Shown: piece after piece, positions 1-12,573 of the stretch
Position numbering within the stretch: position 1 is the stretch's first letter
Layout: every line of letters starts with the position of its first letter
DNA from: a virus
Lineage: Duplodnaviria; Heunggongvirae; Uroviricota; Caudoviricetes
Length of the DNA: 12,573 bases
Direction: 5' to 3' (one strand)
IMG/VR virus record: IMGVR_UViG_2737471828_000010
Span: 1 to 12,573 of that record
Translations under genes and position numbers: made by a program
The notes under the pieces: generated by a model
Database searches by the model: none
Seen by the model: the letters and a program-made list of their open reading frames with translations, nothing else
Told to the model about the DNA's origin: nothing

Positions 1-603
1 GCAGCCACGCAGACCTTTGATGGTATTGCACAGAATATGGCGGCGATGCTGACCGGCAGTGAGCAGAACTGGCGCAGCTTCACCCGTTCCGTGCTGTCCA
101 TGATGACAGAAATTCTGCTTAAGCAGGCAATGGTGGGGATTGTCGGGAGTATCGGCAGCGCCATTGGCGGGGCTGTTGGTGGCGGCGCATCCGCGTCAGG
201 CGGTACAGCCATTCAGGCCGCTGCGGCGAAATTCCATTTTGCGTCCGGGGGATTTACGGGAACCGGCGGCAAATATGAGCCAGCGGGGATTGTTCACCGT
301 GGTGAGTTTGTCTTCACGAAGGAGGCAACCAGCCGGATTGGCGTGGGAAATCTTTACCGGCTGATGCGCGGCTATGCCACCGGCGGTTATGTCGGTGGCA
401 CCGGAAGTCCGGCGCAAATGCGGCGTTCAGAGGGTATCAGATTTGAGCAGAACAACAACGTGGTGATTCAGAACGACGGTACGAATGGTCTGCCAGGTCC
501 ACAAATGCTGAAGGCGGTGTATGACATGGCCCGCAAGGGTGCCCGTGATGAAATTCAGGCACAGATGCGTGATGGTGGTCAGTTCTCCGGAGGTGGACGA
601 TGA
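1..603 (+). CDS. H: Tail tape measure protein, C-terminal fragment (5' end lies upstream of the window)
   Basis: The frame is open from base 1 with no stop before 601..603; the first in-frame ATG at 37 is not the true start. The Gly-rich C-terminal translation (...GGYVGGTGSPAQMRRSEG...KAVYDMARKGARDEIQAQMRDGGQFSGGGR) matches my recollection of the lambda gpH C-terminus. Its stop overlaps the M start (ATGA at 600..603). Confidence 0.9.
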   Translation, partial: AATQTFDGIAQNMAAMLTGSEQNWRSFTRSVLSMMTEILLKQAMVGIVGSIGSAIGGAVGGGASASGGTAIQAAAAKFHFASGGFTGTGGKYEPAGIVHRGEFVFTKEATSRIGVGNLYRLMRGYATGGYVGGTGSPAQMRRSEGIRFEQNNNVVIQNDGTNGLPGPQMLKAVYDMARKGARDEIQAQMRDGGQFSGGGR

Positions 604-929
604 AAACCTTTCGCTGGAAAGTGAAACCCGGCATGGATGTGGCTTCGGCCCCTTCCGTCAGGGAAGTGCGCTTTGGTGATGGCTATTCCCAGCGAGCGCC
701 TGCCGGACTGAATGCCGACCTGAAAACGTACAGCGTGACGCTTTCTGTTCCTCGTAAGGAGGCCACGGCGCTGGAGTCGTTTCTGGCAGAGCACGGAGGC
801 TGGAAAGCCTTTCTGTGGACGCCGCCTTATGGTTACAGGCAGATAAAGGTGACCTGCGCAAAATGGACGTCGCGGGTCAGTATGTTGCGTGTTGAGTTCA
901 GCGCAGAGTTTAAACAGGTGGTGAACTGA
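600..929 (+). CDS. M: Tail tip assembly protein M
   Basis: 109 aa, the same length as lambda gpM, and near-identical from the first residues (MKTFRWKVKPGMDVAS...VEFSAEFKQVVN). Start overlaps the H stop and the stop overlaps the L start (TGATG at 927..931), consistent with translational coupling. Confidence 0.93.
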   Translation: MKTFRWKVKPGMDVASAPSVREVRFGDGYSQRAPAGLNADLKTYSVTLSVPRKEATALESFLAEHGGWKAFLWTPPYGYRQIKVTCAKWTSRVSMLRVEFSAEFKQVVN

Positions 930-1627
930 TGCAGGATATCCGGCAGGAAACACTGAATGAATGCACCCGTGCGGAGCAGTCGGCCAGCGTGGTGCTCTGG
1001 GAAATCGACCTGACAGAGGTCGGTGGAGAACGTTATTTTTTCTGTAATGAGCAGAACGAAAAAGGTGAACCGGTCACCTGGCAGGGGCGGCAGTATCAGG
1101 CATACCCCATTCAGGGGAGCGGTTTTGAACTGAATGGCAAAGGGGCCAGCGCCAGACCAGTGCTGAGCGTGTCCAATCTGTATGGTCTGGTCACCGGGAT
1201 GGTGGAGGATTTGCAGAGTCTGGTTGGCGGAACGGTGGTCCGACGTAAGGTTTACGCCCGTTTTCTGGATGCGGTGAACTTCGTCAACGGAAACAGTGAC
1301 GCCGACCCGGAGCAGGAGGTGGTCAGCCGCTGGCGCATCGAGCAGTGTAGCGAACTGACGGCGGTTGGTGCCTCCTTTGTGCTGGCCACACCGACGGAAA
1401 CGGATGGCGCCGTTTTTCCGGGGCGCATCATGCTGGCCAACACCTGCACCTGGACCTATCGCGGCGATGAGTGCGGTTATCACGGTCCGGCGGTCGCGGA
1501 TGAATATGACCAGCCGACGTCCGATATCACGAAAGATAAATGCAGCAAATGCCTGAGCGGCTGTAAGTTTCGCAATAACATCGGTAACTTTGGCGGCTAC
1601 CTTTCCATTAACAAACTTTCGCAGTAA
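929..1627 (+). CDS. L: Tail tip assembly protein L
   Basis: 232 aa, the same length and closely similar sequence to lambda gpL as I recall it. Cysteine-rich C-terminus (CTWTYRGDECGYHG...CSKCLSGC), consistent with the Fe-S cluster described for gpL. Confidence 0.93.
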   Translation: MQDIRQETLNECTRAEQSASVVLWEIDLTEVGGERYFFCNEQNEKGEPVTWQGRQYQAYPIQGSGFELNGKGASARPVLSVSNLYGLVTGMVEDLQSLVGGTVVRRKVYARFLDAVNFVNGNSDADPEQEVVSRWRIEQCSELTAVGASFVLATPTETDGAVFPGRIMLANTCTWTYRGDECGYHGPAVADEYDQPTSDITKDKCSKCLSGCKFRNNIGNFGGYLSINKLSQ

Positions 1628-1632
1628 ATCCC

Positions 1633-2376
1633 ATGACACAGACAGAATCAGCGATTCTGGCGCACGCCCGGCGATGTGCGCCAGCGGAATCGTGCGGCTT
1701 CGTGGTGAGAACGCCGGAGGGGGACAGGTATTTACCCTGCGCGAATATTTCCGGTGAGCCGGAGGCGTATTTCCGGATGGCTCCGGAGGACTGGCTGCGG
1801 GCAGAAATGCAGGGTGAGATTGCGGCGCTGGTCCACAGTCACCCCGGTGCTCTGCCCTGGCTGAGTGAGGCCGACCGGCGGCTGCAGGTGCAGAGTGGTC
1901 TGCCGTGGTGGCTTGTCTGCCGGGGGGCGATTCACAAGTTCCGCTGTGTGCCGCATCTTACCGGGCGGCACTTTGAGCACGGGGTGACGGACTGTTATGC
2001 GCTGTTCCGGGATGCGTACCATCTGGCGGGGATTGCGCTGCCTGATTTTCATCGTGAGGATGACTGGTGGTGTCACGGTCAGAATCTCTATCTGGATAAC
2101 CTTGAAACACAGGGTTTTTACCGGGTCTCACCGCATGAGGCACAGGCAGGCGACGTGCTGCTGTGTTGTTTTGGCTCGCCTGTTGCCAATCATGCCGCCA
2201 TTTACTGTGGTGACGGCGAGCTGCTGCACCATATTCCTGAACAACTGAGCAAACGAGAGAGGTACACCGACAAATGGCAGCGACGCACACACTCCGTCTG
2301 GCGTCACCGGGCATGGCACGCATCTGCCTTTACGGGGATTTGCAACGATTTGGCCGCCGCATCGACCTGCGTGTGA
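1633..2376 (+). CDS. K: Tail assembly protein K (JAMM/MPN plus NlpC/P60 two-domain protein)
   Basis: 247 aa ORF with a JAMM-type motif H-x-H-x7-S-x2-D (HSHPGALPWLSEAD, residues 68-81) and a candidate upstream Glu in PAESCGF (residue 19), followed by an NlpC/P60-like Cys/His region (GVTDCY...NHAAIY). The classic 199-aa lambda K annotation would correspond to Met49 (nt 1777). No strong Shine-Dalgarno precedes 1633, so the exact start is uncertain. Confidence 0.85.
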   Translation: MTQTESAILAHARRCAPAESCGFVVRTPEGDRYLPCANISGEPEAYFRMAPEDWLRAEMQGEIAALVHSHPGALPWLSEADRRLQVQSGLPWWLVCRGAIHKFRCVPHLTGRHFEHGVTDCYALFRDAYHLAGIALPDFHREDDWWCHGQNLYLDNLETQGFYRVSPHEAQAGDVLLCCFGSPVANHAAIYCGDGELLHHIPEQLSKRERYTDKWQRRTHSVWRHRAWHASAFTGICNDLAAASTCV

Positions 2377-2951
2377 AAACGGGGGCAGAAGCCATCCGGG
2401 CGCTGGCCACACAGCTCCCTGCGTTTCGCCAGAAACTGAGCGACGGCTGGTATCAGGTGCGGATAGCAGGGAAAGATACAGGAGAGAGAGAGCTGTCTGC
2501 CCGTCTGCATGAGCCGCTTCCTGACGGCGCAGTGATACACCTGGTTCCTCGGACAGCCGGTGCTAAAAACGGCGGTGTTTTCCAGATTGTTCTGGGGGCT
2601 GTCGCCATTGCGGCTTCGTTTTTTACTGCAGGAGCCTCTCTGGCTATGTGGGGCGCCGCATTGAGTGCAACAACACTGAGCGCCACTACAGTCCTGTTTT
2701 CTCTCGGTGCCAGTATGATTCTGGGGGGTGTGGCGCAGATGCTGGCCCCGAAACCGAAAACGCCCCGCATGCAGACAACGGATAACGGTAAGCAGAATAC
2801 CTATTTTTCCTCACTGGATAACATGGTTGCCCAGGGCAATGTTCTGCCGGTTCTGTACGGTGAAATGCTCGTGGGATCGCGGGTGATTTCACAGGAAATC
2901 AGCACGGCTGATGAGGGGGGCGGCGGTCAGGTAGTGGTGATTGGTCGCTGA
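2274..2951 (+). CDS. I: Tail assembly protein I
   Basis: 225 aa, closely similar to lambda gpI (MAATHTL.LASPGMARICLYGDLQRFGRRIDLRVKTGAEAIRALATQLP...GGQVVVIGR). The start lies inside the 3' end of K (about 100 nt overlap, different frame), as in lambda. Confidence 0.9.
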   Translation: MAATHTLRLASPGMARICLYGDLQRFGRRIDLRVKTGAEAIRALATQLPAFRQKLSDGWYQVRIAGKDTGERELSARLHEPLPDGAVIHLVPRTAGAKNGGVFQIVLGAVAIAASFFTAGASLAMWGAALSATTLSATTVLFSLGASMILGGVAQMLAPKPKTPRMQTTDNGKQNTYFSSLDNMVAQGNVLPVLYGEMLVGSRVISQEISTADEGGGGQVVVIGR

Positions 2952-2968
2952 TGCAAATGTTTTATGTG

Positions 2969-2993
2969 AAACCGCCTCCGGGCGGTTTTTTTT
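2969..2993 (+). terminator. GC stem-loop followed by an 8-T run between I and J (intrinsic terminator or attenuator)
   Basis: aaaCCGCCtccgGGCGGtttttttt lies directly after the I stop (2949..2951) and before the J ribosome binding site (GGAGAG at 2996..3001). Confidence 0.5.
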
Positions 2994-3007
2994 ATGGAGA
3001 GTAAGTG

Positions 3008-6000
3008 ATGGGTAAAGGTGGCGGTAAGGCGCATACGCCCCGTGAAGCCAGAGATAACCTGAAATCCTCCCAGTTGCTGAGTGTGATTGACGCCATCAGT
3101 GAAGGACCGGTTTATGGTCCGGTTGACGGGCTGAAAAGTGTCCGCCTGAATGGTACGCCGGTACTGGACAGCGGGGGGAATACCAACTTTTCCGGTGTCA
3201 CGGTGGTGTTCCGTTCCGGTGAACAGGAGCAGACACCGCCGGAGGGGTTTGAATCCTCCGGCTCCGAGACGGTACTGGGTGCGGAAGTGAAATACGACAC
3301 GCCGATAACCCGGACCATCACGTCGGCAAACATCGACCGTCTGCGCCTGACCTTCGGGGTGCAGGCACTGGTGAAAACCACCTCAAAGGGGGACAGGGAG
3401 CCGTCGGAAGTCCGCCTGCTGGTTCAGATACAGCGTAATGGTGGCTGGGTGACGGAAAAAGACATCACCATTAAGGGCAAAACCACCTCGCAGTATCTGG
3501 CATCGGTGGTGGTGGATAACCTGCCGCCGCGCCCGTTTAATATCCGGATGCGCAGGATAACGCCGGACAGCACCACGGACCAGTTGCAGAACAAAACGGT
3601 CTGGTCGTCATACACCGAAATCATCGATGTGAAACAGTGCTACCCGAACACGGCACTGGTCGGTGTGCAGGTGGATTCTGAGCAGTTCGGCAGCCAGCAG
3701 GTGAACCGCACTTACCATTTTCGTGGTCGTATTCTGCAGGTTCCGTCGAACTATAACCCGCAGACGCGGCAATACAGCGGTATCTGGGACGGAACGTTAA
3801 AACCGGCATACAGCAACAACCCGGCCTGGTGTCTGTGGGATATGCTGACCCACCCGCGCTACGGCATGGGGAAACGTCTTGGTGCGGCAGATGTGGATAA
3901 ATGGGCGCTGTATGTCATCGGCCAGTACTGCGACCAGTCAGTGCCGGACGGTTTTGGCGGCACGGAGCCGCGCATCACCTGTAATGCCTGGCTGACCACA
4001 CAACGTAAGGCGTGGGATGTGCTCAGCGATTTCTGCTCGGCGATGCGCTGTATGCCGGTATGGAACGGGCAGACGCTGACGTTCGTGCAGGACCGGCCAT
4101 CGGATAAGGTGTGGACCTATAACCGCAGTAATGTGGCGATGCCGGGTGATGGCGCGCCGTTCCGCTACAGCTTCAGCGCCCTGAAGGACCGCCATAATGC
4201 CGTTGAGGTGAACTGGATTGACCCTGACAACGGCCAGGAGACGGCGACAGAGCTTGTGGAGGACACGCAGGCCATTGCCCGTTACGGTCGTAACGTCACG
4301 AAGATGGATGCCTTTGGCTGTACCAGTCGTGGGCAGGCGCACCGCGCCGGGCTGTGGCTGATTAAAACAGAACTGCTGGAAACGCAGACCGTGGACTTCA
4401 GCGTGGGTGCTGAAGGGCTTCGCCATGTACCGGGCGATGTCATTGAAATCTGCGATGATGACTATGCCGGTATCAGCACCGGCGGGCGCGTGCTGGCGGT
4501 AAACAGCCAGACCCGGACGCTGACGCTCGACCGTGAAATCACGCTGCCATCCTCCGGTACCACGCTGATAAGCCTGGTTGACGGAAGTGGCAATCCGGTC
4601 AGCGTGGAGGTCCAGTCCGTCACCGACGGCGTGAAGGTAAAAGTGAGCCGTGTTCCTGACGGCGTTGCAGAATACAGCGTGTGGGGGCTGAAGCTGCCGA
4701 CGCTGCGTCAGCGCCTGTTTCGCTGTGTGAGTATCCGTGAGAACGATGACGGCACGTATGCCATCACCGCCGTGCAGCATGTACCGGCAAAAGAGGCCAT
4801 CGTGGATAACGGGGCGCACTTTGACGGCGACCAGAGCGGCACGGTGAATGGTGTCACGCCGCCAGCGGTGCAGCACCTGACTGCCGAAGTCACCGCAGAC
4901 AGCGGGGAATATCAGGTGCTGGCGCGCTGGGACACGCCGAAGGTGGTGAAGGGGGTGAGCTTCCTGCTCCGTCTGACCGTAACAGCGGACGAAGGCAGTG
5001 AGCGGCTGGTCAGCACGGCCCGGACGACGGAAACCACATACCGCTTCACGCAACTGGCGCTGGGGAACTACAGGCTGACAGTCCGGGCGGTAAATGCGTG
5101 GGGACAGCAGGGCGATCCGGCATCGGTATCGTTCCGGATTGCCGTACCAGCAGCGCCGTCGCGGATTGAGCTGACACCGGGCTATTTTCAGATAACCGCC
5201 ACGCCGCATCTTGCGGTTTATGATCCGACGGTGCAGTTTGAGTTCTGGTTCTCGGAAAAGCGGATTGCGGATATCAGGCAGGTTGAAACCAGCGCGCGTT
5301 ATCTTGGTACGGCGCTGTACTGGATAGCCGCCAGTATCAATATCAAACCGGGCCATGATTATTACTTTTATATCCGCAGTGTGAACACCGTTGGCAAATC
5401 GGCATTCGTGGAGGCTGTTGGTCAGCCGAGTGATGATGCATCCGGTTATCTGGATTTTTTCAAAGGCGAGATAGGGAAAACCCATCTGGCTCAGGAGCTG
5501 TGGACGCAGATTGATAACGGTCAGCTTGCGCCTGACCTGGCTGAAATCAGGACGTCCATTACGGATGTCAGCAATGAAATCACACAGACCGTCAATAAGA
5601 AACTGGAAGACCAGAGTGCAGCGATCCAGCAGATACAGAAGGTTCAGGTTGATACAAATAATAATCTGAACAGCATGTGGGCTGTGAAGCTGCAACAGAT
5701 GAAGGACGGACGCCTTTATATTGCGGGTATCGGTGCCGGTATTGAGAATACGCCAGCAGGAATGCAGAGTCAGGTGCTGCTGGCGGCAGACAGGATTGCG
5801 ATGATTAATCCTGCGAATGGCAACACAAAGCCGATGTTTGTTGGTCAGGGTGATCAGATATTCATGAATGAAGTGTTCCTGAAATATCTGACGGCTCCCA
5901 CCATTACCAGTGGCGGTAATCCTCCGGCGTTTTCCCTGACTCCGGACGGGCGGCTGACGGCGAAAAATGCGGATATCAGCGGTAACGTGAACGCGAACTC

Positions 6001-6487
6001 CGGGACACTCAACAACGTCACGATAAATGAGAACTGCCGGATTCTGGGAAAACTGTCAGCCAACCAGATTGAAGGCGATATTGTTAAAACAGTGGGTAAG
6101 GCTTTTCCCCGGGACTCCCGGGCACCGGAGCGGTGGCCATCAGGGACCATTACCGTCAGGGTTTATGACGATCAGCCGTTTGACCGGCAAATTGTTATTC
6201 CGGCGGTGGCATTCAGTGGCGCTAAGCATGAGAGAGAGCATACTGATATTTACTCCTCATGCCGTCTGATAGTGCGGAAAAACGGTGCTGAAATTTATAA
6301 CCGTACCGCGCTGGATAATACGCTGATTTACAGTGGTGTTATTGATATGCCAGCAGGCAGAGGTGTAATGACACTGGAGTTTTCGGTATCAGCATGGCTG
6401 GTGAATAACTGGTATCCCACCGCAAGTATCAGCGATTTGCTGGTTGTGGTGATGAAAAAATCCACAGCCGGTATCACGATTAGCTGA
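3008..6487 (+). CDS. J: Tail tip / host specificity protein J (central tail fiber)
   Basis: About 1159 aa. The N-terminus [34 protein letters not shown]... and most of the length are closely similar to lambda gpJ as I recall it. The ORF track begins at GTG 3005, but ATG 3008 with GGAGAG 6 nt upstream is the more likely start. The last ~150 aa and a block near nt 5460-5700 diverge from lambda. Confidence 0.93.
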
Positions 6488-6505
6488 ATTTTATAATCCA
6501 TATAC

Positions 6506-6531
6506 TGGCGCCAGAAATGGCGCCTTTTTTA
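6506..6531 (+). terminator. Intrinsic terminator downstream of J
   Basis: Palindromic stem GGCGCC (6507..6512) / GGCGCC (6519..6524) with loop agaaat, followed by TTTTTT (6525..6530), 20 nt after the J stop. Confidence 0.65.
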
Positions 6532-6584
6532 TTGTTATTCCTGAATCCTCTCTTCCGGGGCTGACATTGACTTATGGAGTACAT

Positions 6585-8306
6585 ATGGCCGTACAGATAT
6601 CTGGTGTACTGAAAGACGGTGCGGGTAAACCGGTGCAGGCGTGTTCAATTGAATTGCGGTCCAGAAAAACGAGTCCGACGGTGATTGTGCACATTGTGGC
6701 GGAATGTATTACGGACAGTAACGGGCGGTATTTAATCGAAGCCGAGCCAGGATTTTATGATGTTTTTCTTCTCCGTGAAGGGTGGGCTCCGGTAAAAGCC
6801 GGTGAGATTTATGTCACACCGACGGATAAGCCGGATACGCTGAATGCATTTCTGGATGCTCCCAAAGATGGCGATTTGCGTCCTGAGGTGATGAAACGCT
6901 TTGAGATAATGGTGAATACCGTTATTACGCTGTCTGAGCAGGTTACCCGTGATAAGGAGGCAACAGGCGCAGACGCCGCGGCAGCGGCAGAATCGGCGTC
7001 CGCTGCCCGGGAAAGTGAAAGGAAATCGCAGAATTATGAGGTGCAGTCTCAGAAAAATGCAGAGTCTGCAGCCGGAAGTGCGCAGGAGGCCGGACAATAT
7101 GCTGTGGAGGCTGCACAGGCAAGAGATAATACGCAGACCCTTGCTGATGCGGTGCAGAAAAATGCAGAGGTTGTGGCAGAACAGCGTCAGCAGGTGAATA
7201 TACTGGCTGCAGAAATGGCAGAAAATGCCGGACAGGTTCAGCAGGATAAACAGGATACTGAGCGGCTGCTGGAGCAGGCACAACAGGCAGCCAGTGAGTC
7301 TTCAGCCAGTGCCGTGGAGTCGGGGACGCATGCCAGCGAAGCTGCACAGAGTGCACGGCAGGTAAGCAGTGATTTACAGAAGACGGTAACGGCACGTAAT
7401 GAGGCAGAGGGTTTTGCCACAGAGGCCGCCAGTCGTGCAGAAGAGAGTGCACAGATAAAAGCGCAGACGGAGTCCGTGGCTCTGAATGTTCAGCATGTGG
7501 CAGACAGTGTTGTGGCTGTAAGCCAGTCTGTGGAGCTACAGGCCGGGCAGGTGCAGCAACTGGTCAGCCAGGCGGAAGACAGTGCCACGACAGCAGGTGA
7601 ACATGAGCAGGGGGCACTGAAGGCACTGGAGGAGGCCAGGGAGATTGCAAAAACGCCAGGACCACAGGGAGAGCCAGGACCGCAGGGGGAGACCGGCCCA
7701 CAGGGCCCCAGTGGTGAAAAGGGAGAGAAAGGGGACCGGGGCGATACCGGGCCTCAGGGAGAAAAAGGTGAGAAAGGCGATAAAGGTGATACCGGTGCCC
7801 GGGGAGCTACCGGCCCACAGGGGCCTCAGGGACCCATGGGACCCAGCGGAGTTTACCCGGAAGACGGGATAAAGACTGCGAAAAAATTCACGGGTATTCT
7901 GGCTCATGGTTTTATGTATTCTGACCTTCAGTTTCCGTTGCTGAAATATAACCACTACCTTGCCTGTGAAGACCACCCCGTTCCGGGTGCCGCGGGAAAT
8001 TATTCGTATGGTCTGATGTGGCAGGTTCCGACGAATGAGAATGTTTCAGGTCAGATTTTCCTTAACTGTATGGGACAGGCATTCATCAGGGCTTACAGCG
8101 GACTGGGTACCACTTCATGGTGGCAGTTTGCCGGTCGTCCGGTAGCCGGTGGTGTGGGGAGTTACCTGTTCTGTGCTTCTCAGGATGCGGTCAGTTACGG
8201 AGATGAACTGGCCGGAGAGCGGCTTGACCCGGTACAGTCAGGAATATGGATGGCCTGCGGAAATGCAGAAGCTGAAGAGAAAATGCTTTTTCTGAGGGTG
8301 AAATAA
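6585..8306 (+). CDS. stf: Side tail fiber protein (Stf-like) with an Ala/Gln/Glu-rich shaft, a collagen-like tract and a distinct C-terminal domain
   Basis: N-terminus [24 protein letters not shown]... resembles the lambda Stf N-terminus ([17 protein letters not shown]...). ATG 6585 has GGAG 5 nt upstream; the track start TTG 6567 is less likely. Residues ~125-360 form a low-complexity A/Q/E/S-rich region, and the C-terminal ~150 aa is a globular-looking domain I cannot assign. Confidence 0.8.
7659..7850 (+). repeat. Collagen-like Gly-X-Y repeat tract (64 residues) inside the tail fiber gene
   Basis: Uninterrupted G-X-Y periodicity, [64 protein letters not shown], visible in the DNA as repeated ggN-ccN-cag and ggN-gaN-aaa units. 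Confidence 0.85.
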
Positions 8307-8917
8307 TGGATACCAGGAATTCAGAAGCGGACGTGCGCAATGCCCGTTTTAATGAAGACGGCAGCATTACCTGTGAGGTGTTCATGGCAGACCGTTCTGA
8401 TGACAGTCATCGGGTATATGTACCTTATACTGCCAGAGCTTCAGACCCGACAGAATTCGGGTTAAGGCTCTGGTCAGGACTGATATCAGGGGACCTTGGT
8501 GAAGTCACGCCGTTTGTGGTGACAGAGGAGATACTGGAAAAGGCCAGAAATCAGAAATACGGTGAAATCAGTCGCTGGCGTGACAGCCAGGAGAACAGCA
8601 GTTTTGTTTTTGAATTCAGTGGTCATCGCTGGGATGCCGGAAAGGCGTCACAGTCCAGACTGACACCTGTTGTTGCGGTGGCAGGAAACGGGCTGTTGCC
8701 GGAGCATTTTTTCTGGACGGATGCGGATAATCAGGATGTCACTCTGACGCCGGAAGAGCTGATACAACTGGATACTGCGATGAATGCGGCGATGGTGATG
8801 CAGGGGTTTAAAATCCACGAACGCCAGCGCCGGATGAAAGAAGAAGTGGCAGGGCTGACCGCACTGCCGGATATTCGTGCGTATCCTGTTGGCTGGCCGG
8901 AGGGTGATGATGAGTAA
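8306..8917 (+). CDS. Putative tail fiber assembly protein (Tfa-like chaperone)
   Basis: 203 aa ORF whose ATG overlaps the fiber stop (TAATG at 8304..8308), with a GAGGGTG ribosome binding site upstream. Position immediately after the fiber gene and a C-terminal segment (...TPEELIQLDTAMNAAMVMQGFKIHERQRRMKEEVAGLTALPDIRAYPVGWPE) reminiscent of Tfa C-termini. Assigned by context plus weak similarity. Confidence 0.6.
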   Translation: MDTRNSEADVRNARFNEDGSITCEVFMADRSDDSHRVYVPYTARASDPTEFGLRLWSGLISGDLGEVTPFVVTEEILEKARNQKYGEISRWRDSQENSSFVFEFSGHRWDAGKASQSRLTPVVAVAGNGLLPEHFFWTDADNQDVTLTPEELIQLDTAMNAAMVMQGFKIHERQRRMKEEVAGLTALPDIRAYPVGWPEGDDE

Positions 8918-9290
8918 GTTCACCACACCGGCCATTCTGGAGATGCTGGATGATTACCGCTGGCGGCTGGTTGAGCCGTTTGAATTCTGGCTGACGGATA
9001 ACCCGGATGATGTGATTTATGTTCCGGAGGGATATGTGACGGACCTTGCCAGTGTGCCACGGCTTCTGTGGGCTCTGTTCCCGCCGCATGGTCGTTATGC
9101 GAAAGCGGCGATTATTCATGACTGGCTGTATGACAATGCCCTGCGCACGAAGGCGGAAGCGGACAGGATATTTCTGGATGCGATGACGGTGCTGGGAGTT
9201 CCACGCTGGCGCAGACGGTTGATGTATCTTGCGGTAAGGTTGTTCGGGAAAGGGAAATACAGCGACACGCAACAGGGGACCTGTTGCTGA
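8907..9290 (+). CDS. DUF1353-like small protein (tail-fiber-associated, function unknown)
   Basis: About 127 aa from the ATG pair at 8907/8910, with GGAGGG at 8899..8904, overlapping the stop of the preceding gene. Translation MMSKFTTPAILEMLDDYRWRLVEPFEFWLTD...YVTDLASVPRLLWALFPPHGRYAKAAIIHDWLY resembles the DUF1353 signature as I remember it. The track start GTG 8877 is less likely. Confidence 0.55.
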   Translation: MMSKFTTPAILEMLDDYRWRLVEPFEFWLTDNPDDVIYVPEGYVTDLASVPRLLWALFPPHGRYAKAAIIHDWLYDNALRTKAEADRIFLDAMTVLGVPRWRRRLMYLAVRLFGKGKYSDTQQGTCC

Positions 9291-9320
9291 AAAAAGTCTG
9301 CCATACAGATGTATGGCAGA
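9290..9320 (-). terminator. Leftward intrinsic terminator candidate (H1)
   Basis: Perfect stem CTGCCATA (9298..9305) / TATGGCAG (9312..9319), flanked on the + strand 5' side by six A's, which gives a 3' U-run on the - strand transcript. Confidence 0.5.
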
Positions 9321-9493
9321 AAAGGTATCCAAGGGAGAAGACACTGCAGTGCAGTATCCCTTATGGTCGGCGGTGATTATATAACCACAGAACGGCGCAT
9401 CAAACAGTTTTACGTACCAGTTGTTAAATTTGTGTATTATATCAAACAAATTGGTAACATGCTGCTGTGTGTAAATGTGATGTTAACATGGTG

Positions 9494-9529
9494 ATATGTG
9501 TTACTGACTGGTATTGCCTGTTCACCTGG
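9494..9529. repeat. ~36 nt repeat, copy 1 of 2 (atatgtgttactgactggtattgcctgttcacctgg)
   Basis: Matches 10569..10609, which carries a short internal insertion (ccacg/accacgt). Both copies are in the ORF-poor AT-rich region. Confidence 0.6.
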
Positions 9530-9564
9530 TCTGTGAAGATATGCAACATGGCCCATGTTGTAGC

Positions 9565-9597
9565 AAAAAAAGCCTGCCATACAGATATATGGCAGGC
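9565..9597 (-). terminator. Leftward intrinsic terminator candidate (H2, paralog of H1)
   Basis: Stem GCCTGCCATA / TATGGCAGGC with loop cagata, preceded on + by seven A's. On the - strand this reads as a GC stem followed by TTTTTTT. Same stem as H1 with a 1-nt loop difference. Confidence 0.6.
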
Positions 9598-9805
9598 AAA
9601 CGTCTGTTACGGGAAAACAAATGAATGTCGGGTATAGTACCCCCTTACTTGACTCCTTCACAATTATGCATCAATAATGAAACATATAAAGCATTTGTAT
9701 TTTCTTATTGCTGGTTTTGTGTATTGCGTCTCAAAACTAAATTATTTTATTACTCTCATAATAAATGAGGTAAATTATATATATAGTTATTTATTCTGTT
9801 TTTAT

Positions 9806-9834
9806 AAAAAGAAGCCCACAGATTACTGTGGGCT
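9806..9834 (-). terminator. Leftward intrinsic terminator candidate (H3)
   Basis: Stem AGCCCACAG / CTGTGGGCT with loop atta, preceded on + by tataaaaagaa (a U-rich tail on the - strand). Confidence 0.55.
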
Positions 9835-10085
9835 AAGCATTAGCATTATTTATATTAGTATAGTTACGGTTGCTGTAAGCATATTAGCTTACGGAAATGT
9901 TGATAACTCTGATGGGAATCACAAAAAAATACCAGTGCTGAAAATGACAGTACTGGTAAAAATATGATGAGTATTTGCAAAAAATACAACCGAATTGCTC
10001 TGTAAGGTTCACTACCTCTTTTATTCTACTATAAATTATAGTACATAGTTCTGTGATACTTATCACGCTGTATATTCATTGGTAT

Positions 10086-10110
10086 AAAAAGGCCCGTATG
10101 GATACGGGCC
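10086..10110 (-). terminator. Leftward intrinsic terminator candidate (H4)
   Basis: Stem GGCCCGTA / TACGGGCC with loop tgga, preceded on + by tataaaaa. Confidence 0.55.
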
Positions 10111-10207
10111 TGGCTTACGGGATAGGCTAACTGAGTAAGTAGGGTTATGGCTTACTCGCCGGCAGTATACCATATAAAACAACGGACAATTCTTTGCGGT
10201 AAATCAT

Positions 10208-10236
10208 AAAAAAAGACCCGTACCGTACGTGCGGGT
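10208..10236 (-). terminator. Leftward intrinsic terminator candidate (H5)
   Basis: Stem ACCCGTAC / GTGCGGGT (one non-Watson-Crick position) with loop cgtac, preceded on + by seven A's. Confidence 0.45.
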
Positions 10237-10354
10237 GTTAATTGCTGGTGAAGCTGTCAGAGGTGCATATTATTATAATAACGCTTGTAGACGTTTGTTA
10301 TTATTTATGCCCTCTATTACTGGTACTGTGATTTCCATCACAAAAATACATTAT

Positions 10355-10382
10355 AAAAAGAAAGCCCGCAGATTATGCGGGC
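10355..10382 (-). terminator. Leftward intrinsic terminator candidate (H6, paralog of H3)
   Basis: Stem GCCCGCA / TGCGGGC with loop gatta, preceded on + by tataaaaagaaa. Differs from H3 by a compensatory base-pair change (A-T in H3, G-C in H6). Confidence 0.55.
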
Positions 10383-10401
10383 AATAGCTTATGCATGAGA
10401 T

Positions 10402-10426
10402 GAACGACTCCGGGTCGTTTATTTTT
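10402..10426 (+). terminator. Weak rightward hairpin with T-run (possible + strand terminator)
   Basis: Stem AACGAC / GTCGTT with loop tccgg, followed by tatttttc. Short, AT-rich stem. Confidence 0.3.
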
Positions 10427-10568
10427 CTTAATAAGAAGGACTACATTTATATTCTACTATGTAAGTATGGTATTGATGATGTGAAGTATATCTCAAATTA
10501 ACGCAATAAGAAAAAGCAACAACCCATTTCTGAATGTGAGAGAACTGCTAATATAGCAATATGTGTTC

Positions 10569-10609
10569 CTGACTGGTACCACGTATTGCCTGTTCCAGGA
10601 GCATATTTG
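10569..10609. repeat. ~36 nt repeat, copy 2 of 2 (atatgtgttcctgactggtaccacgtattgcctgttccagg)
   Basis: Direct repeat of 9494..9529. Confidence 0.6.
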
Positions 10610-10665
10610 CCTGGATTCAGATTGCTCGTAATTCACCACGGCTATAAATCGTAAAGAAAATTGCA

Positions 10666-10718
10666 GCACGCCCTATGCAAGAACGTGCCACGGCTGGCTG
10701 GCAAACTTTCGATAGTGC
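10666..10718. repeat. ~50 nt imperfect direct repeat, left copy (hairpin with loop tatgcaaga ... cgatagtgc), left flank of the peptidase cassette
   Basis: gcacg-ccctatgcaagaa-cgtgc-cacggctggctggcaaactttcgatagtgc aligns with 12269..12321 (first 15 nt tatgcaagaacgtgc identical; roughly 80 percent identity over the remainder). Confidence 0.65.
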
Positions 10719-10998
10719 GAGTATTGAATGATTTCCAGTCGTTATTGATTCTACGCATTAATTTATGAACAAACTACTTATCTGTGGTCTTTCGGTCTGT
10801 AATAGGGGCCCTGTCTGAAATGGAGTTTCAGGATTAAGCGATATCGTACTCACCCTTAGTCCCACCTGATAAATCTGGAGAACGGAAGCACTGCCAGATG
10901 ATGGTGGTGGCTACAATTACTCACACTCAATATTCGGAGCAATCACGTACATCATCACGATGCTAGGAATGCGGAGTTTGATGACTGTCCAGTGATGT

Positions 10999-11029
10999 AA
11001 AAAGAGACCCCGGCGTAGTAGCCGAGGTC
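10999..11029 (-). terminator. Leftward intrinsic terminator candidate for the peptidase gene
   Basis: Stem GACCCCGGC / GCCGAGGTC (one mismatch) with loop gtagta, 22 nt downstream of the - strand stop at 11051..11053. On the - strand it is followed by tctcTTTTT. Confidence 0.5.
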
Positions 11030-11050
11030 CTCAATCAGAAACTACAATAT

Positions 11051-12055
11051 TCACTGAGTGCCTTCATCTGGTTGCTCTGCTGGTAAGGTTCCAGCCTCTT
11101 CTTCAATTTCCGCATGTTTTCCATCGCTTCCCTGGACAGGTTCATCCCTTGGCGGTTCTGCTCTTCCTGAATTTTGGTCAGAGATTTCATCTCCTTCCTG
11201 AATTCTGCTGTTGTCATGGGAATCTTCCTCTGCGTTAGTTGTTTCATATTGTTTTTTAGGAGTTAAATCTTTAATCACCGGTTTGTCGAAGATAGAGATT
11301 TCGCCTGACGAAATCATCTCACCAAGAACTTCGTACAGGTTGGCTGCAAAGTCTGTAGGACTCTCAACATGGTTGAATAGTTCCCTCGCCTCTTTACGGT
11401 CTATCACAAAACCATGGGCTGGATATCCAGCGATCAACTTGCCTAAGGAGCTTTCCTTAAGATTTTTCGAGTGACTATTCAAACGCTCCCCATAGGAAAG
11501 CGCTATGTTCATTGCTCGTTGATGCTCCCCGAGTTTGATGGGGTCTATCTGTGAGGCCATCGGCGATATGATTGCTTCAGTAAGCTTAGCAGCAATATCT
11601 GCAGACATCTTCGTGCTAATTTGGTTTCTGTACTTTATATCAAGTACGTATGATCTAAAGGTCGAAATAGCGCACTCTTTTATTTCATCAATCGCCGTTG
11701 CGATAACAAGGCCCGAGCTCAATTCGCCGATCTCATCATTTTTCTTAAGTTGGATGTCTAGAGGACCAAGCTCACCCATATCACCAATCACGAGCTTATG
11801 AGCGGCGACAGCCATCAAGGTTCCAGCACTTTTGCAAGGGCCAACAACTAGAACGGTGATGTGTTCATAGTTGTGTTGCAAAGCGCGGCCAATTCTATAT
11901 CCTGCGCTGGGATCACCGCCATAGGTAGCGACGCAAAAAAGAACATTTTTTTGTAAACCATGGTTAGTTTTTCTTTCTTTAATCGCTTTGGTGATGTCGT
12001 GATGACCAGAGCGGTGAACATCGCCTATGTATACGTAAACGTCTGTATCTTGCAT
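11051..12055 (-). CDS. Stand-alone ClpP/SppA-fold serine peptidase-like protein (S49/SDH-like) with an acidic low-complexity C-terminal tail
   Basis: 334 aa ORF with ribosome binding site AGGGA 5 nt upstream of the ATG (- strand). N-terminal ~220 aa follows the ClpP-fold pattern: ATYGGDPSAGYRIGRAL echoes the ClpP NSPGGSVTAG segment, and VVGPCKSAGTLMAVAAHK echoes the ClpP/SppA nucleophile segment (GQAASMG type), giving a candidate catalytic Ser in CKSAG. The last ~70 aa are Asp/Glu-rich and low complexity. No His in the position of the ClpP catalytic His, so a Ser-Lys dyad (SppA-like) is possible. Confidence 0.6.
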   Translation of the reverse strand: MQDTDVYVYIGDVHRSGHHDITKAIKERKTNHGLQKNVLFCVATYGGDPSAGYRIGRALQHNYEHITVLVVGPCKSAGTLMAVAAHKLVIGDMGELGPLDIQLKKNDEIGELSSGLVIATAIDEIKECAISTFRSYVLDIKYRNQISTKMSADIAAKLTEAIISPMASQIDPIKLGEHQRAMNIALSYGERLNSHSKNLKESSLGKLIAGYPAHGFVIDRKEARELFNHVESPTDFAANLYEVLGEMISSGEISIFDKPVIKDLTPKKQYETTNAEEDSHDNSRIQEGDEISDQNSGRAEPPRDEPVQGSDGKHAEIEEEAGTLPAEQPDEGTQ

Positions 12056-12268
12056 TTTAATCCCTATGAATAAAATGGTTGAATTTAATGCTGTTCCTCA
12101 GCCAAAGCACTATATCGATAACCAAAATACCTCAGATTTGTCGAGAAAACTATCTGGAAAATTAGGCTAACTCTTTGAATCTTCGGAATGCAAAAGAGAT
12201 ACTTTCTCTGGATGTGCGCCAGGTTGATGTGTAAGTATGGCGGTCAGAATAGTCTCGAAAAACCGCAG

Positions 12269-12321
12269 GCACGTTGTATGCAAGAACGTGCTGTGGTTGG
12301 CAGGTGAACTTCCGATAGTGC
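12269..12321. repeat. ~50 nt imperfect direct repeat, right copy; also a terminator-like hairpin directly downstream of the DinI-like gene
   Basis: gcacgtt-gtatgcaag-aacgtgc then tgtggttggcaggtgaacttccgatagtgc. On the - strand the hairpin is followed by a T-run (complement of aaaaa at 12258..12262). Confidence 0.6.
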
Positions 12322-12324
12322 TCA

Positions 12325-12573
12325 TTAGTGAACAAACCACTCGTCAGCAGACTCCCAGGTATCTTTCAGAGTTTCCTGCACAAAAGTTTTAGCTGAATCT
12401 TTATCGGCTGTGCGCGTAACAGAAAGGCCATCGTTGCTGGTGGCTTTTACGATCACCTCTACATCGTCATAACGCTTACTGATGCGTCGGGTTAATTCTT
12501 CCTTTAACGCATCCACAGCACTGGTTGGCATTTTAGTCATTTTTTCTTTGGCTATGCAGATTTCAATACGCAT
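12325..12573 (-). CDS. dinI: DinI-family protein (DNA damage-inducible protein I-like, prophage-encoded)
   Basis: 82 aa: [37 protein letters not shown]...[15 protein letters not shown]. Start and C-terminal WESAD-WFV motif match E. coli DinI as I recall it (MRIEVTIAK...ETWESADDWFVSE). The start codon is the last three bases of the window, so the promoter is outside it. Confidence 0.85.

Follow-up and report, generated by a model that had tools for sequence, protein, structure and literature searches.

Two copies of one element near the end of a lambdoid prophage

The stretch of DNA considered here, positions 1 to 12,573 of IMG/VR virus record IMGVR_UViG_2737471828_000010, hereafter called the window, is the right-hand end of an Escherichia coli lambdoid prophage. 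Tail genes and a DUF4376 gene are followed by a stretch of small cargo, an intact gene for a Clp-fold serine proteinase and, last, an intact DinI-like gene (Table 1). Strain GXU-23-25-310 (locus L001) is 98.2% identical to the window across the last 2.3 kb; there dinI is followed, beyond the window end, by a tyrosine integrase of the dusA type and then dusA, the attachment site. The protease gene lies between the two copies of an imperfect direct repeat (10666-10718 and 12269-12321), which probably came to stand one behind the other when the ends of two accessory regions were joined.

The repeat is well supported. A repeat search of the window gave 79% identity between the copies at a spacing of 1603, local blastn aligned them with 49/63 identities (E 5e-10), and an exhaustive scan found them to be the best direct 53-mer match in the window (42/53), the best such match in 12 dinucleotide-preserving shuffles reaching only 31-34/53. 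The copies share an exact 15-mer, TATGCAAGAACGTGC, at 10674-10688 and 12277-12291. A preliminary description of this DNA had reported an imperfect direct repeat of ~50 nt, each copy a terminator-like hairpin and the right one directly 3' of the DinI-like gene on the minus strand. All of this agrees with what was found: the shuffled controls stay far from the observed match, both copies are predicted to fold on the minus strand as a hairpin followed by a T-run, and only 3 nt separate the end of the right copy from the DinI-like stop codon. The same description took the interval between the copies to be exactly the peptidase gene with its promoter and terminator, which is incorrect, since the interval also holds a 40-nt spacer, a dinI relic, an invertase relic and an S24/LexA fragment.

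Both repeats are diverged copies of one discrete element of ~96 bp, composed of a GC-rich hairpin (its first ~32 nt) and a further ~65 nt. The canonical order in other prophages is the hairpin plus ~25 nt (the 53-nt repeat), a 40-nt segment, GAGTATTGAATGATTTCCAGCCGTTACCGATTTTACGTGT, and then the dinI stop codon; it was found in RM13514, the O157 ssrA prophage, the phages mEp460, 2H10 and Lys8385Vzw and strain BH100N, and the repeat is, as had been suggested, a sequence normally situated 3' of dinI-like genes. A query made of dinI and the element was matched by ~3120 of 5426 complete E. coli genomes and also by many Stx-converting and other lambdoid phages. Genomes with a single copy and no cassette, the relatives that the preliminary description had proposed to look for, are the rule, the cassette being present in only 21 of the 5426 and a match to the query in ~3100. 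Some 100 further copies were taken from IMG/VR by exact match to the 15-mer. When ~85 of these were compared with a canonical copy, homology nearly always began on the left at -6 to -12 from the 15-mer, which is the base of the hairpin, and on the right either ended at +81 to +86 or continued through dinI. Because both edges are sharp, the element is a discrete unit of ~96 bp and not merely a 'dinI terminator'. Among the 5426 genomes, a chimeric query of the element and part of yecE had a median of 4 matching places per genome and a maximum of 13; as these include the native yecE and ykgJ-ecpE loci, a typical genome carries ~2 prophage copies of the element.

The element sits where the variable cargo region meets the dinI/integrase/att end of E. 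coli prophages. Its carriers are very many lambdoid prophages and some with myovirus-type tails, and it recurs at the Qin-like end at ydfJ and at the ends of Stx phage records. Its right-hand neighbour may be dinI, the lambda integrase, the KplE1 integrase IntS, the gene of a SIR2-like protein or other cargo genes; in locus L014 the sequence between the element and lambda int is one that we take to be the lambda sib/tI hairpin. To its left lie NleG7 and EspS, effectors of the type III secretion system (T3SS), in RM13514, EspM2 and EspW in the O157 ssrA prophage and, elsewhere, an ATP-dependent nuclease, a diguanylate cyclase, an invertase with ydfK, a P22-type tailspike or, in phage mEp460, only the tail fibre gene. 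With left neighbours that differ among genomes, or are missing altogether (mEp460), the repeat does mark the edge of a hypervariable modular cargo slot, as had been proposed, and the element offers a convenient landmark by which that slot can be delimited in E. coli prophages.

One locus, L097, has an integrase ~180 nt to the right of the element, and the element was considered as its attP. This was rejected: the integrase is IntS of KplE1, its target is argW, and KplE1 of K-12 lacks the element, which in this case adjoins the integration module without itself being the att site. In at least eight IMG/VR loci (Table 1) a partial copy of the hairpin (its left half, 18-24 nt, GCACGTCGTATGCAAGAA) also lies to the left of the full element, at a distance of ~1.02 kb, and adjoins an invertase gene where this was checked (L030, L041); such partial copies may be another recombination scar.

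A conserved hairpin with a predicted terminator role

RNAalifold applied to an alignment of 49 distinct copies predicted three helices: P1, which is the hairpin; P2, a long-range pairing of GGCTGG with CCAGCC; and P3, a small helix enclosed by P2. Across the alignment 96% of the paired cells can pair, compared with 21-52% for controls in which the partners were slid. Three stem pairs of P1 show compensatory changes, one of them being C:G in 30 sequences and U:A in 12, and in the K-12 copy the stem has gone from CAC/GTG to TAC/GTA. P2 offers one compensatory pair and several G:U pairs that become mismatches when read on the minus strand. To judge by these substitutions, P1 is clearly maintained as a hairpin, and the case for P2 and P3 as real helices is thin. 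The loop varies in copies that were found otherwise than through the 15-mer, for instance in K-12 (TATGTAAGAACGTAC) and in the O157 ssrA prophage (TATGC-AGGACGTGC).

Both copies in the window have the sequence of an intrinsic terminator, a GC-rich stem-loop followed by a U-run downstream of a gene. The hairpins would keep leftward transcripts of dinI or int from running antisense into the cargo and tail genes. On the minus strand, the left hairpin is situated 300 nt beyond the protease gene's own terminator. Several observations weaken the prediction of a terminator: the fold z-scores of both copies are unremarkable (-0.8 to -1.1 in 81-nt contexts), the terminator consensus scan missed the right copy, and many copies elsewhere have no good T-run. 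The apparent invariance of the loop is partly a matter of construction, most copies having been fetched by an exact 15-mer that includes it.

A coding role of the element was rejected, since a 1-nt indel polymorphism lies inside the hairpin and the stem changes are compensatory. RefSeq/PGAP places a 35-aa 'capsid protein' (WP_072033272.1) or its pseudogene across the element (window 10661-10768, plus strand; L001 6362-6469; L002 4017-4103), an annotation that is probably spurious.

Relics around the left copy and the partner of the protease block

The left copy runs from P1 (10663-10691/10694) through GGCTGGCTGG...CCAGTCG (P2, enclosing P3) to its end at ...GATTCTAC. On its left is a relic of the 5' end of ykgJ, in which the start codon ATG has become ACG and ~6 codons (SNLNP) are kept, together with an A/T-rich upstream region that provides the T-run of the left hairpin on the minus strand. 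On its right is a relic of the 3' end of a dinI-like gene, which carries a 1-nt deletion and can be aligned in register with the corresponding part of dinI in RM13514, O157 and phage 2H10, the alignment stopping beyond the relic; a tblastn search for a full dinI pseudogene in 10720-11050 gave nothing past this relic, which also falls within a repeat family of the window (D3). Because these two relics flank it, the left copy is read as the fossil of a former region end that has lost both neighbouring genes, and not as an insertion scar. The relic of a Pin/Hin-type invertase comes next, and in strain L3Cip3 (L004) a truncated 'recombinase family protein' annotated by PGAP ends at the position equivalent to the end of this relic.

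From 10798 onward the window consists of a block (invertase tail, S24/LexA fragment, protease gene and terminator, upstream region) that is present in 21 of the 5426 genomes. In 19 of these the block runs into a single long-form element and dinI, has no left copy, and begins on the left with the 5' two-thirds of the invertase gene, which is truncated; this context, typified by L3Cip3, is a prophage located at prfC and equipped with myovirus-type baseplate genes. The double copy of the window recurs only in GXU-23-25-310 and UTME-7, and in all three the right copy has lost its 40-nt segment. The double copy of UTME-7 is located behind a myovirus-type tail module with an intact invertase. Given that the single-copy genomes link the block to one element and dinI, the right copy is the block's native partner.

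This distribution is at odds with a cassette delimited as a unit by the two repeats, which is how the preliminary description had seen it: 19 of the 21 genomes with the protease have the right copy only, and their left edge is a truncated invertase gene. By the same count, the same cassette bounded elsewhere by recombination sites, as expected of a site-specific cassette, was not seen in the 21 genomes, the element being present once in 19 of them. Nor does the further idea that an insertion generated the repeats survive, the copies being 21% diverged and of different allele types; for these two reasons we regard them as having been brought together rather than made by insertion.

Recombination within the copies

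Comparison with UTME-7 locates a crossover. To the left of the left copy the two sequences are unrelated; they then differ at 9 positions in the 44 nt of 10660-10703 and at only 4 in the ~1380 nt of 10704-12080, and a crossover is therefore placed inside the left copy, between 10703 and 10739. Through this crossover the entire right arm passed between a prophage of siphovirus type and one of myovirus type. Around the right copy, the window, GXU-23-25-310 and UTME-7 show no difference in 10989-12195, followed by clustered differences across the right copy (12196-12323) and within dinI (12406-12427), which is the pattern expected of conversion with other copies in the cell. The proposal that these are recombining boundary sequences at a cargo slot can accordingly be kept in so far as a breakpoint falls inside the left copy and the slot is marked by the element, and is to be abandoned in so far as the repeat pair was thought to bound a mobile cassette.

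Different genes between two copies, which the preliminary description had suggested looking for in other genomes, were indeed found. In locus L030 two copies surround a helix-turn-helix (HTH) gene and an M78 (ImmA/IrrE-like) peptidase gene, and in L041, L106 and L084 they surround a Bro-N gene together with HTH and M78 genes; in both cases the left copy is followed by a dinI relic, and the length of the relic differs between the two. In L109 the copies flank the gene of a 517-aa protein, the left copy being only a partial match. L062 has tail-fibre genes and IS1 between two elements, and a dinI follows each element.

Origin of the double copy

We propose, with a probability of roughly 0.7, that two accessory-region ends have been joined in tandem, and that the direct repeat is a by-product and not the agent of the cassette's arrival. 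The left copy would be the fossil end of one region, still accompanied by six ykgJ codons and the last dinI codons. The end-piece of another prophage's accessory region, consisting of the invertase relic, the S24/LexA-like relic and the protease gene with its terminator, would have been joined to it and would have brought its own copy of the element (now minus 40 bp), the intact dinI and the dusA-type integrase. The only novel joint is at ~10796/10798 and has no homology across it; it would represent an illegitimate joint of a dinI 3' end to the middle of an invertase gene. Such a structure would arise most simply if two phage genomes with a similar gene order, each reading tail fibres, (invertase), cargo, element, dinI, int, underwent a single unequal and non-homologous crossover, in which the element would be duplicated automatically. 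Once present, ~100 bp of multi-copy homology would serve as a preferred point of crossover and gene conversion, at which phage arms and cargo would be exchanged. Two considerations weigh against this reconstruction. A precise empty-site relative of the window lineage was not found, and the order of events is thus reconstructed rather than observed; moreover, a single unequal crossover is inseparable on present data from an integration followed by a deletion, both predicting the same order.

The latter course of events would have a second phage integrate into the resident prophage at the element, used as the attachment sequence attB-in-PP_2 that is compared below, so that the two copies would be attL and attR. 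We consider this unlikely, while granting it some weight, and think the same of the step that must follow, a deletion from inside the inner dinI to inside the tail-fibre invertase by which most of the inner prophage would later have been removed and its cargo end left. The published account of an att site so used suits the element, and the predicted order (left copy, dinI relic, then invertase relic, cargo, right copy, dinI and int) is the one observed; two events are needed, however, where one unequal crossover suffices. The arrangement in L062 would suit an inner prophage, and dinI relics of different lengths behind the left copies of different loci are what random deletions would give, although no inner prophage that was still intact and lay between two elements was retrieved. 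The contiguous and colinear arrangement of protease, element and dinI in the 19 single-copy genomes further means that the right copy need not be a hybrid att site, and for the integrases found beside the element, namely a dusA-type one, lambda Int and IntS, other targets are known.

A different question is whether the element does more than terminate dinI transcription. It is retained beside at least five right-hand contexts, namely dinI, lambda sib-attP-int, IntS, defence-like genes and the chromosomal ykgJ locus. As a tentative suggestion, to which we attach rather little probability, it could be a functional unit of ~96 bp, either a structured RNA or a DNA site recognized in trans, selected to lie between cargo and integration module and promoting the exchange of cargo. 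Such a reading would fit the sharp edges, the varied right-hand neighbours, the three helices and a G:U pattern that favours the strand opposite dinI. In a related reading, which is doubtful, the element would be mainly a structured RNA (a small RNA (sRNA) or a sib-like retroregulatory 3' element) and the repeat would be an RNA gene present in two copies, not a DNA boundary. The three predicted helices, the compensatory changes in P1, the single compensatory pair and plus-strand-only G:U pairs of P2, and the sharp boundaries on both sides are consistent with such a gene. The covariation outside P1 is thin, however, no conserved promoter accompanies the element, the right copy stands at a functional dinI without P2 and P3, and the K-12 spacer that contains a copy has no annotated sRNA. 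Rfam gave no match in the window at gathering thresholds; at permissive thresholds the last 50 nt of the CssrB model (RF02799) align to the hairpin in each window copy and in the K-12 copy, and for the two window copies this alignment is limited to the terminal hairpin, with 127 model positions missing and scores of 24.9 and 16.3 bits, far under the gathering threshold of 76.

A self-contained mobile gene cassette, integron- or shufflon-like, that hops between dinI-proximal slots with the repeats as its recombinase sites is most improbable: the repeats are direct, contain a conserved hairpin, recur around different cargo and often have an invertase gene nearby, but 19 of the 21 protease genomes are single-copy with a truncated gene instead of a repeat at the left boundary, the copies are 79% identical, unequal in length and flanked by gene relics, the invertase of the window is only a 28-nt relic, and the breakpoint between the window and UTME-7 (within 10703-10739) is a switch of the homologous type and not a defined core. 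Hardly more credible is a local tandem duplication of dinI and its terminator, after which one dinI would have decayed and the protease gene would have been inserted; this course would yield direct repeats each with dinI sequence and was rejected given the 21% divergence of the copies (as against ~99.7% identity of the intervening DNA among the three genomes) and their different allele types, the left being of the long form and resembling the ykgJ-flanked K-12 copy and the Qin-end copy, the right of the short form and tied to the protease in single-copy genomes.

The protease gene and other features of the window

The product of the protease gene resembles the ClpP/SDH-like families only in residues ~20-106, its C-terminal two-thirds matching no family. 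The match to Pfam SDH_protease (PF01972) scores 27 bits, under the cut-off of 31.3, and that to NCBIfam Clp_like_SDH (NF047768) 35.9 bits, under the cut-off of 250; RefSeq uses the SDH name all the same. The protein belongs to PHROG 21683 (2e-198), a family of unknown function, and neither a PADLOC search nor a PDB sequence search with it returned a match or relative. A crude scan of 12056-12268 on the minus strand revealed no sigma-70-like consensus site. In UTME-7 an IS903B lies between the protease start and the right copy (L005 7364-8332, equivalent to window ~12102-12110), in the presumed promoter region. The commoner context of the protease gene, with dinI and a degraded S24/LexA-like gene as neighbours, hints at a role linked to SOS.

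Three strong intrinsic terminators were noted on the minus strand of the small-cargo stretch, at 9834-9813, 10111-10090 and 10382-10364, with a spacing of ~275 nt, in addition to a 28-nt direct-repeat family (copies at 9905, 9960, 10190 and 10324) and a weak AgvB-like Rfam match at 10085-10158 (20.4 bits). The region 9800-10530 may thus encode two or three prophage sRNA-like units on the minus strand rather than the plus-strand open reading frames 9677-9967 and 10229-10387, for which a family search gave no match; when aligned, the three units are only partially similar. The window and GXU-23-25-310, elsewhere 98-99% identical, show 21 differences in the ~160 nt of 10215-10376, around the terminator at 10364-10382, which resembles a further small patch of conversion among the cargo.

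Table 1. Positions of the features discussed, in window coordinates unless a locus is named.
Feature	Position	Strand	Remarks
Tail-tip J gene	3005-6487
Side tail fibre gene	6567-8306		phage_tail_N domain and collagen repeats
ykgJ 5'-end relic with upstream A/T-rich region	10608..10662	-	blastn of 10608-10778 to K-12 304161-304334, 81% identity
Left element copy, long (canonical) form	10663..10760	.	homologous to canonical copy from -10 to +105
Left hairpin stem	10691-10663	-	12-pair stem, tail AATTTTCTTT; terminator-like site in consensus scan
Decayed dinI-like 3' relic, last ~6-11 codons and stop	10761..10796	-	TTA-TGAACAAACTACTT...; in-register alignment
Pin/Hin-type DNA invertase relic	10798..10825	+	VIGALSEME in window, VMGALAEIE in strain L3Cip3
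S24/LexA-family peptidase pseudogene fragment	10827..11000	+	frameshifted, without N-terminus; 97-99% identical to L004 6030-6203 and L005 6048-6221, RefSeq-annotated as such
Protease gene intrinsic terminator	11005..11030	-	10-bp stem and CTTTTT; -19.5 kcal/mol, z -5.5
Clp-fold 'SDH family' serine proteinase gene, intact, 334 aa	11051..12055	-	Pfam, NCBIfam, PHROG, RefSeq name
Protease upstream region (~210 nt)	12056..12262	-
Right element copy, short form	12263..12321	.	P1 (12263-12296) and 25 nt; 40-nt segment (3' arm of P2, and P3) deleted
Right hairpin stem	12263-12296	-	tail UUUUU (A-run 12258-12262)
DinI-like gene, intact, 82 aa	12325-12573	-	Pfam DinI 2e-19; PHROG 189
Partial hairpin copies	L050 373-390; L053 13590-13607; L058 9408-9425; L085 3546-3563; L097 10980-10997; L131 563-586; others

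Relation to known systems

Foremost among the known sequences to which the element can be compared is attB-in-PP_2, a 96-bp att sequence described by Nakamura et al. (2021, PLoS Pathog; PMC8112680) at the very end of lambda-like prophages, beside exchangeable effector loci. That sequence is polymorphic, has ~81% identity with the ykgJ/ecpE spacer and provides other lambda-like phages with an integration site inside prophages (PMC8112680). The element described here is likewise ~96 bp long, polymorphic between copies, and has ykgJ-ecpE homology extending into both flanks, the element with its short flanks being 81-85% identical to the K-12 ykgJ-ecpE spacer (304161-304436). It is also found, as attB-in-PP_2 is, at the prophage end beside effector loci, in prophages at mlrA, ydfJ, ssrA and other sites. 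Size, homology and position thus make it probable that the two are the same. On the other hand, the likeness rests on matching properties, the published alignment being an image, and the sequences said to accompany attB-in-PP_2, a yecE-like one of 100 bp and an ompW-like one of 121 bp (PMC8112680), were hardly encountered: in a blastn comparison of all fetched loci with K-12 ompW and yecE, a single yecE junction (L062) was genuine, and the chimeric query of element and yecE had no joined place in the 5426 genomes, all of which weighs against the identification. The paper on attB-in-PP_2 mentions no dinI, hairpin or terminator role (PMC8112680), and the two copies in the window flank 1.5 kb of relics and one gene, not a prophage.

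The chromosomal homologue has been proposed to be the source from which phages captured attB-in-PP_2 (PMC8112680). In the K-12 ykgJ-ecpE spacer (304183-304494; L133 4184-4495) the element is followed by a decayed dinI, which can be aligned in broken frames with DinI residues 34-55 and 65-82, the identity being 55-59%. Since this relic is present, the chromosome carries the same ykgJ-element-dinI block as some phage contigs (L062), and the spacer may be a prophage fossil rather than the source of a site captured by phages.

Modular theory, reportedly developed by Susskind & Botstein (1978), Juhala et al. (2000) and Clark et al. (2001), is said to place conserved boundary or 'linker' sequences at lambdoid mosaic joints. 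The element shares with such linkers its shortness, its conservation between exchangeable modules and the homologous crossovers seen in it (the switch between the window and UTME-7); it differs in being unusually widespread and sharp-edged on both sides, and in having a hairpin with compensatory changes and a chromosomal homologue.

The concept of morons is said to come from Hendrix and co-workers. The protease gene has the attributes of such cargo, namely its own terminator (z -5.5), a variable presence (21 of the 5426 genomes) and other cargo in the same slot elsewhere. As with morons and with exchangeable effector loci, a concept tied to sites downstream of tail-fibre genes (as cited in PMC8112680), it is independently terminated and placed between tail fibres and int/att, in a slot that elsewhere accommodates T3SS effectors, nucleases, a diguanylate cyclase or defence-like genes; unlike the contents of exchangeable effector loci, the cargo of the window is a Clp-fold protease and not an effector, and the promoter scan gave no match.

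With CssrB, an sRNA of Shigella flexneri (Rfam RF02799; Peng et al. 2011, PMC3071730), the resemblance is confined to the 3'-terminal ~50 nt of the model (AAAUCGUAAAG...hairpin), which align to the left, right and K-12 copies on the plus strand. The ~130-nt body of CssrB is absent from the window and the scores are 16-25 bits against 76, so that the element is not a member of that family. The tI/sib region of lambda lies just beyond attP. There, as here, a hairpin is found downstream of a leftward int or dinI transcript, at the border with the b or cargo region; the element has no sequence similarity to sib, and L014 possesses both, so the two are not equivalents.

The components of this locus, that is cargo slots and exchangeable effector loci, boundary sequences acting as crossover points, and attB-in-PP_2, are already known. 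What is added is a link between three things so far considered apart from each other (the dinI terminator, the ykgJ-ecpE spacer and, probably, attB-in-PP_2), the recognition of a dinI relic in that spacer, and a resolved example of the stacking of region ends. The window may serve as a worked example in which a cargo region ends in a multi-copy boundary sequence, joining duplicates that sequence, and later crossovers and conversion tracts fall inside it. As such the case is instructive and at the same time ordinary phage mosaicism, the current understanding of which it leaves unchanged.

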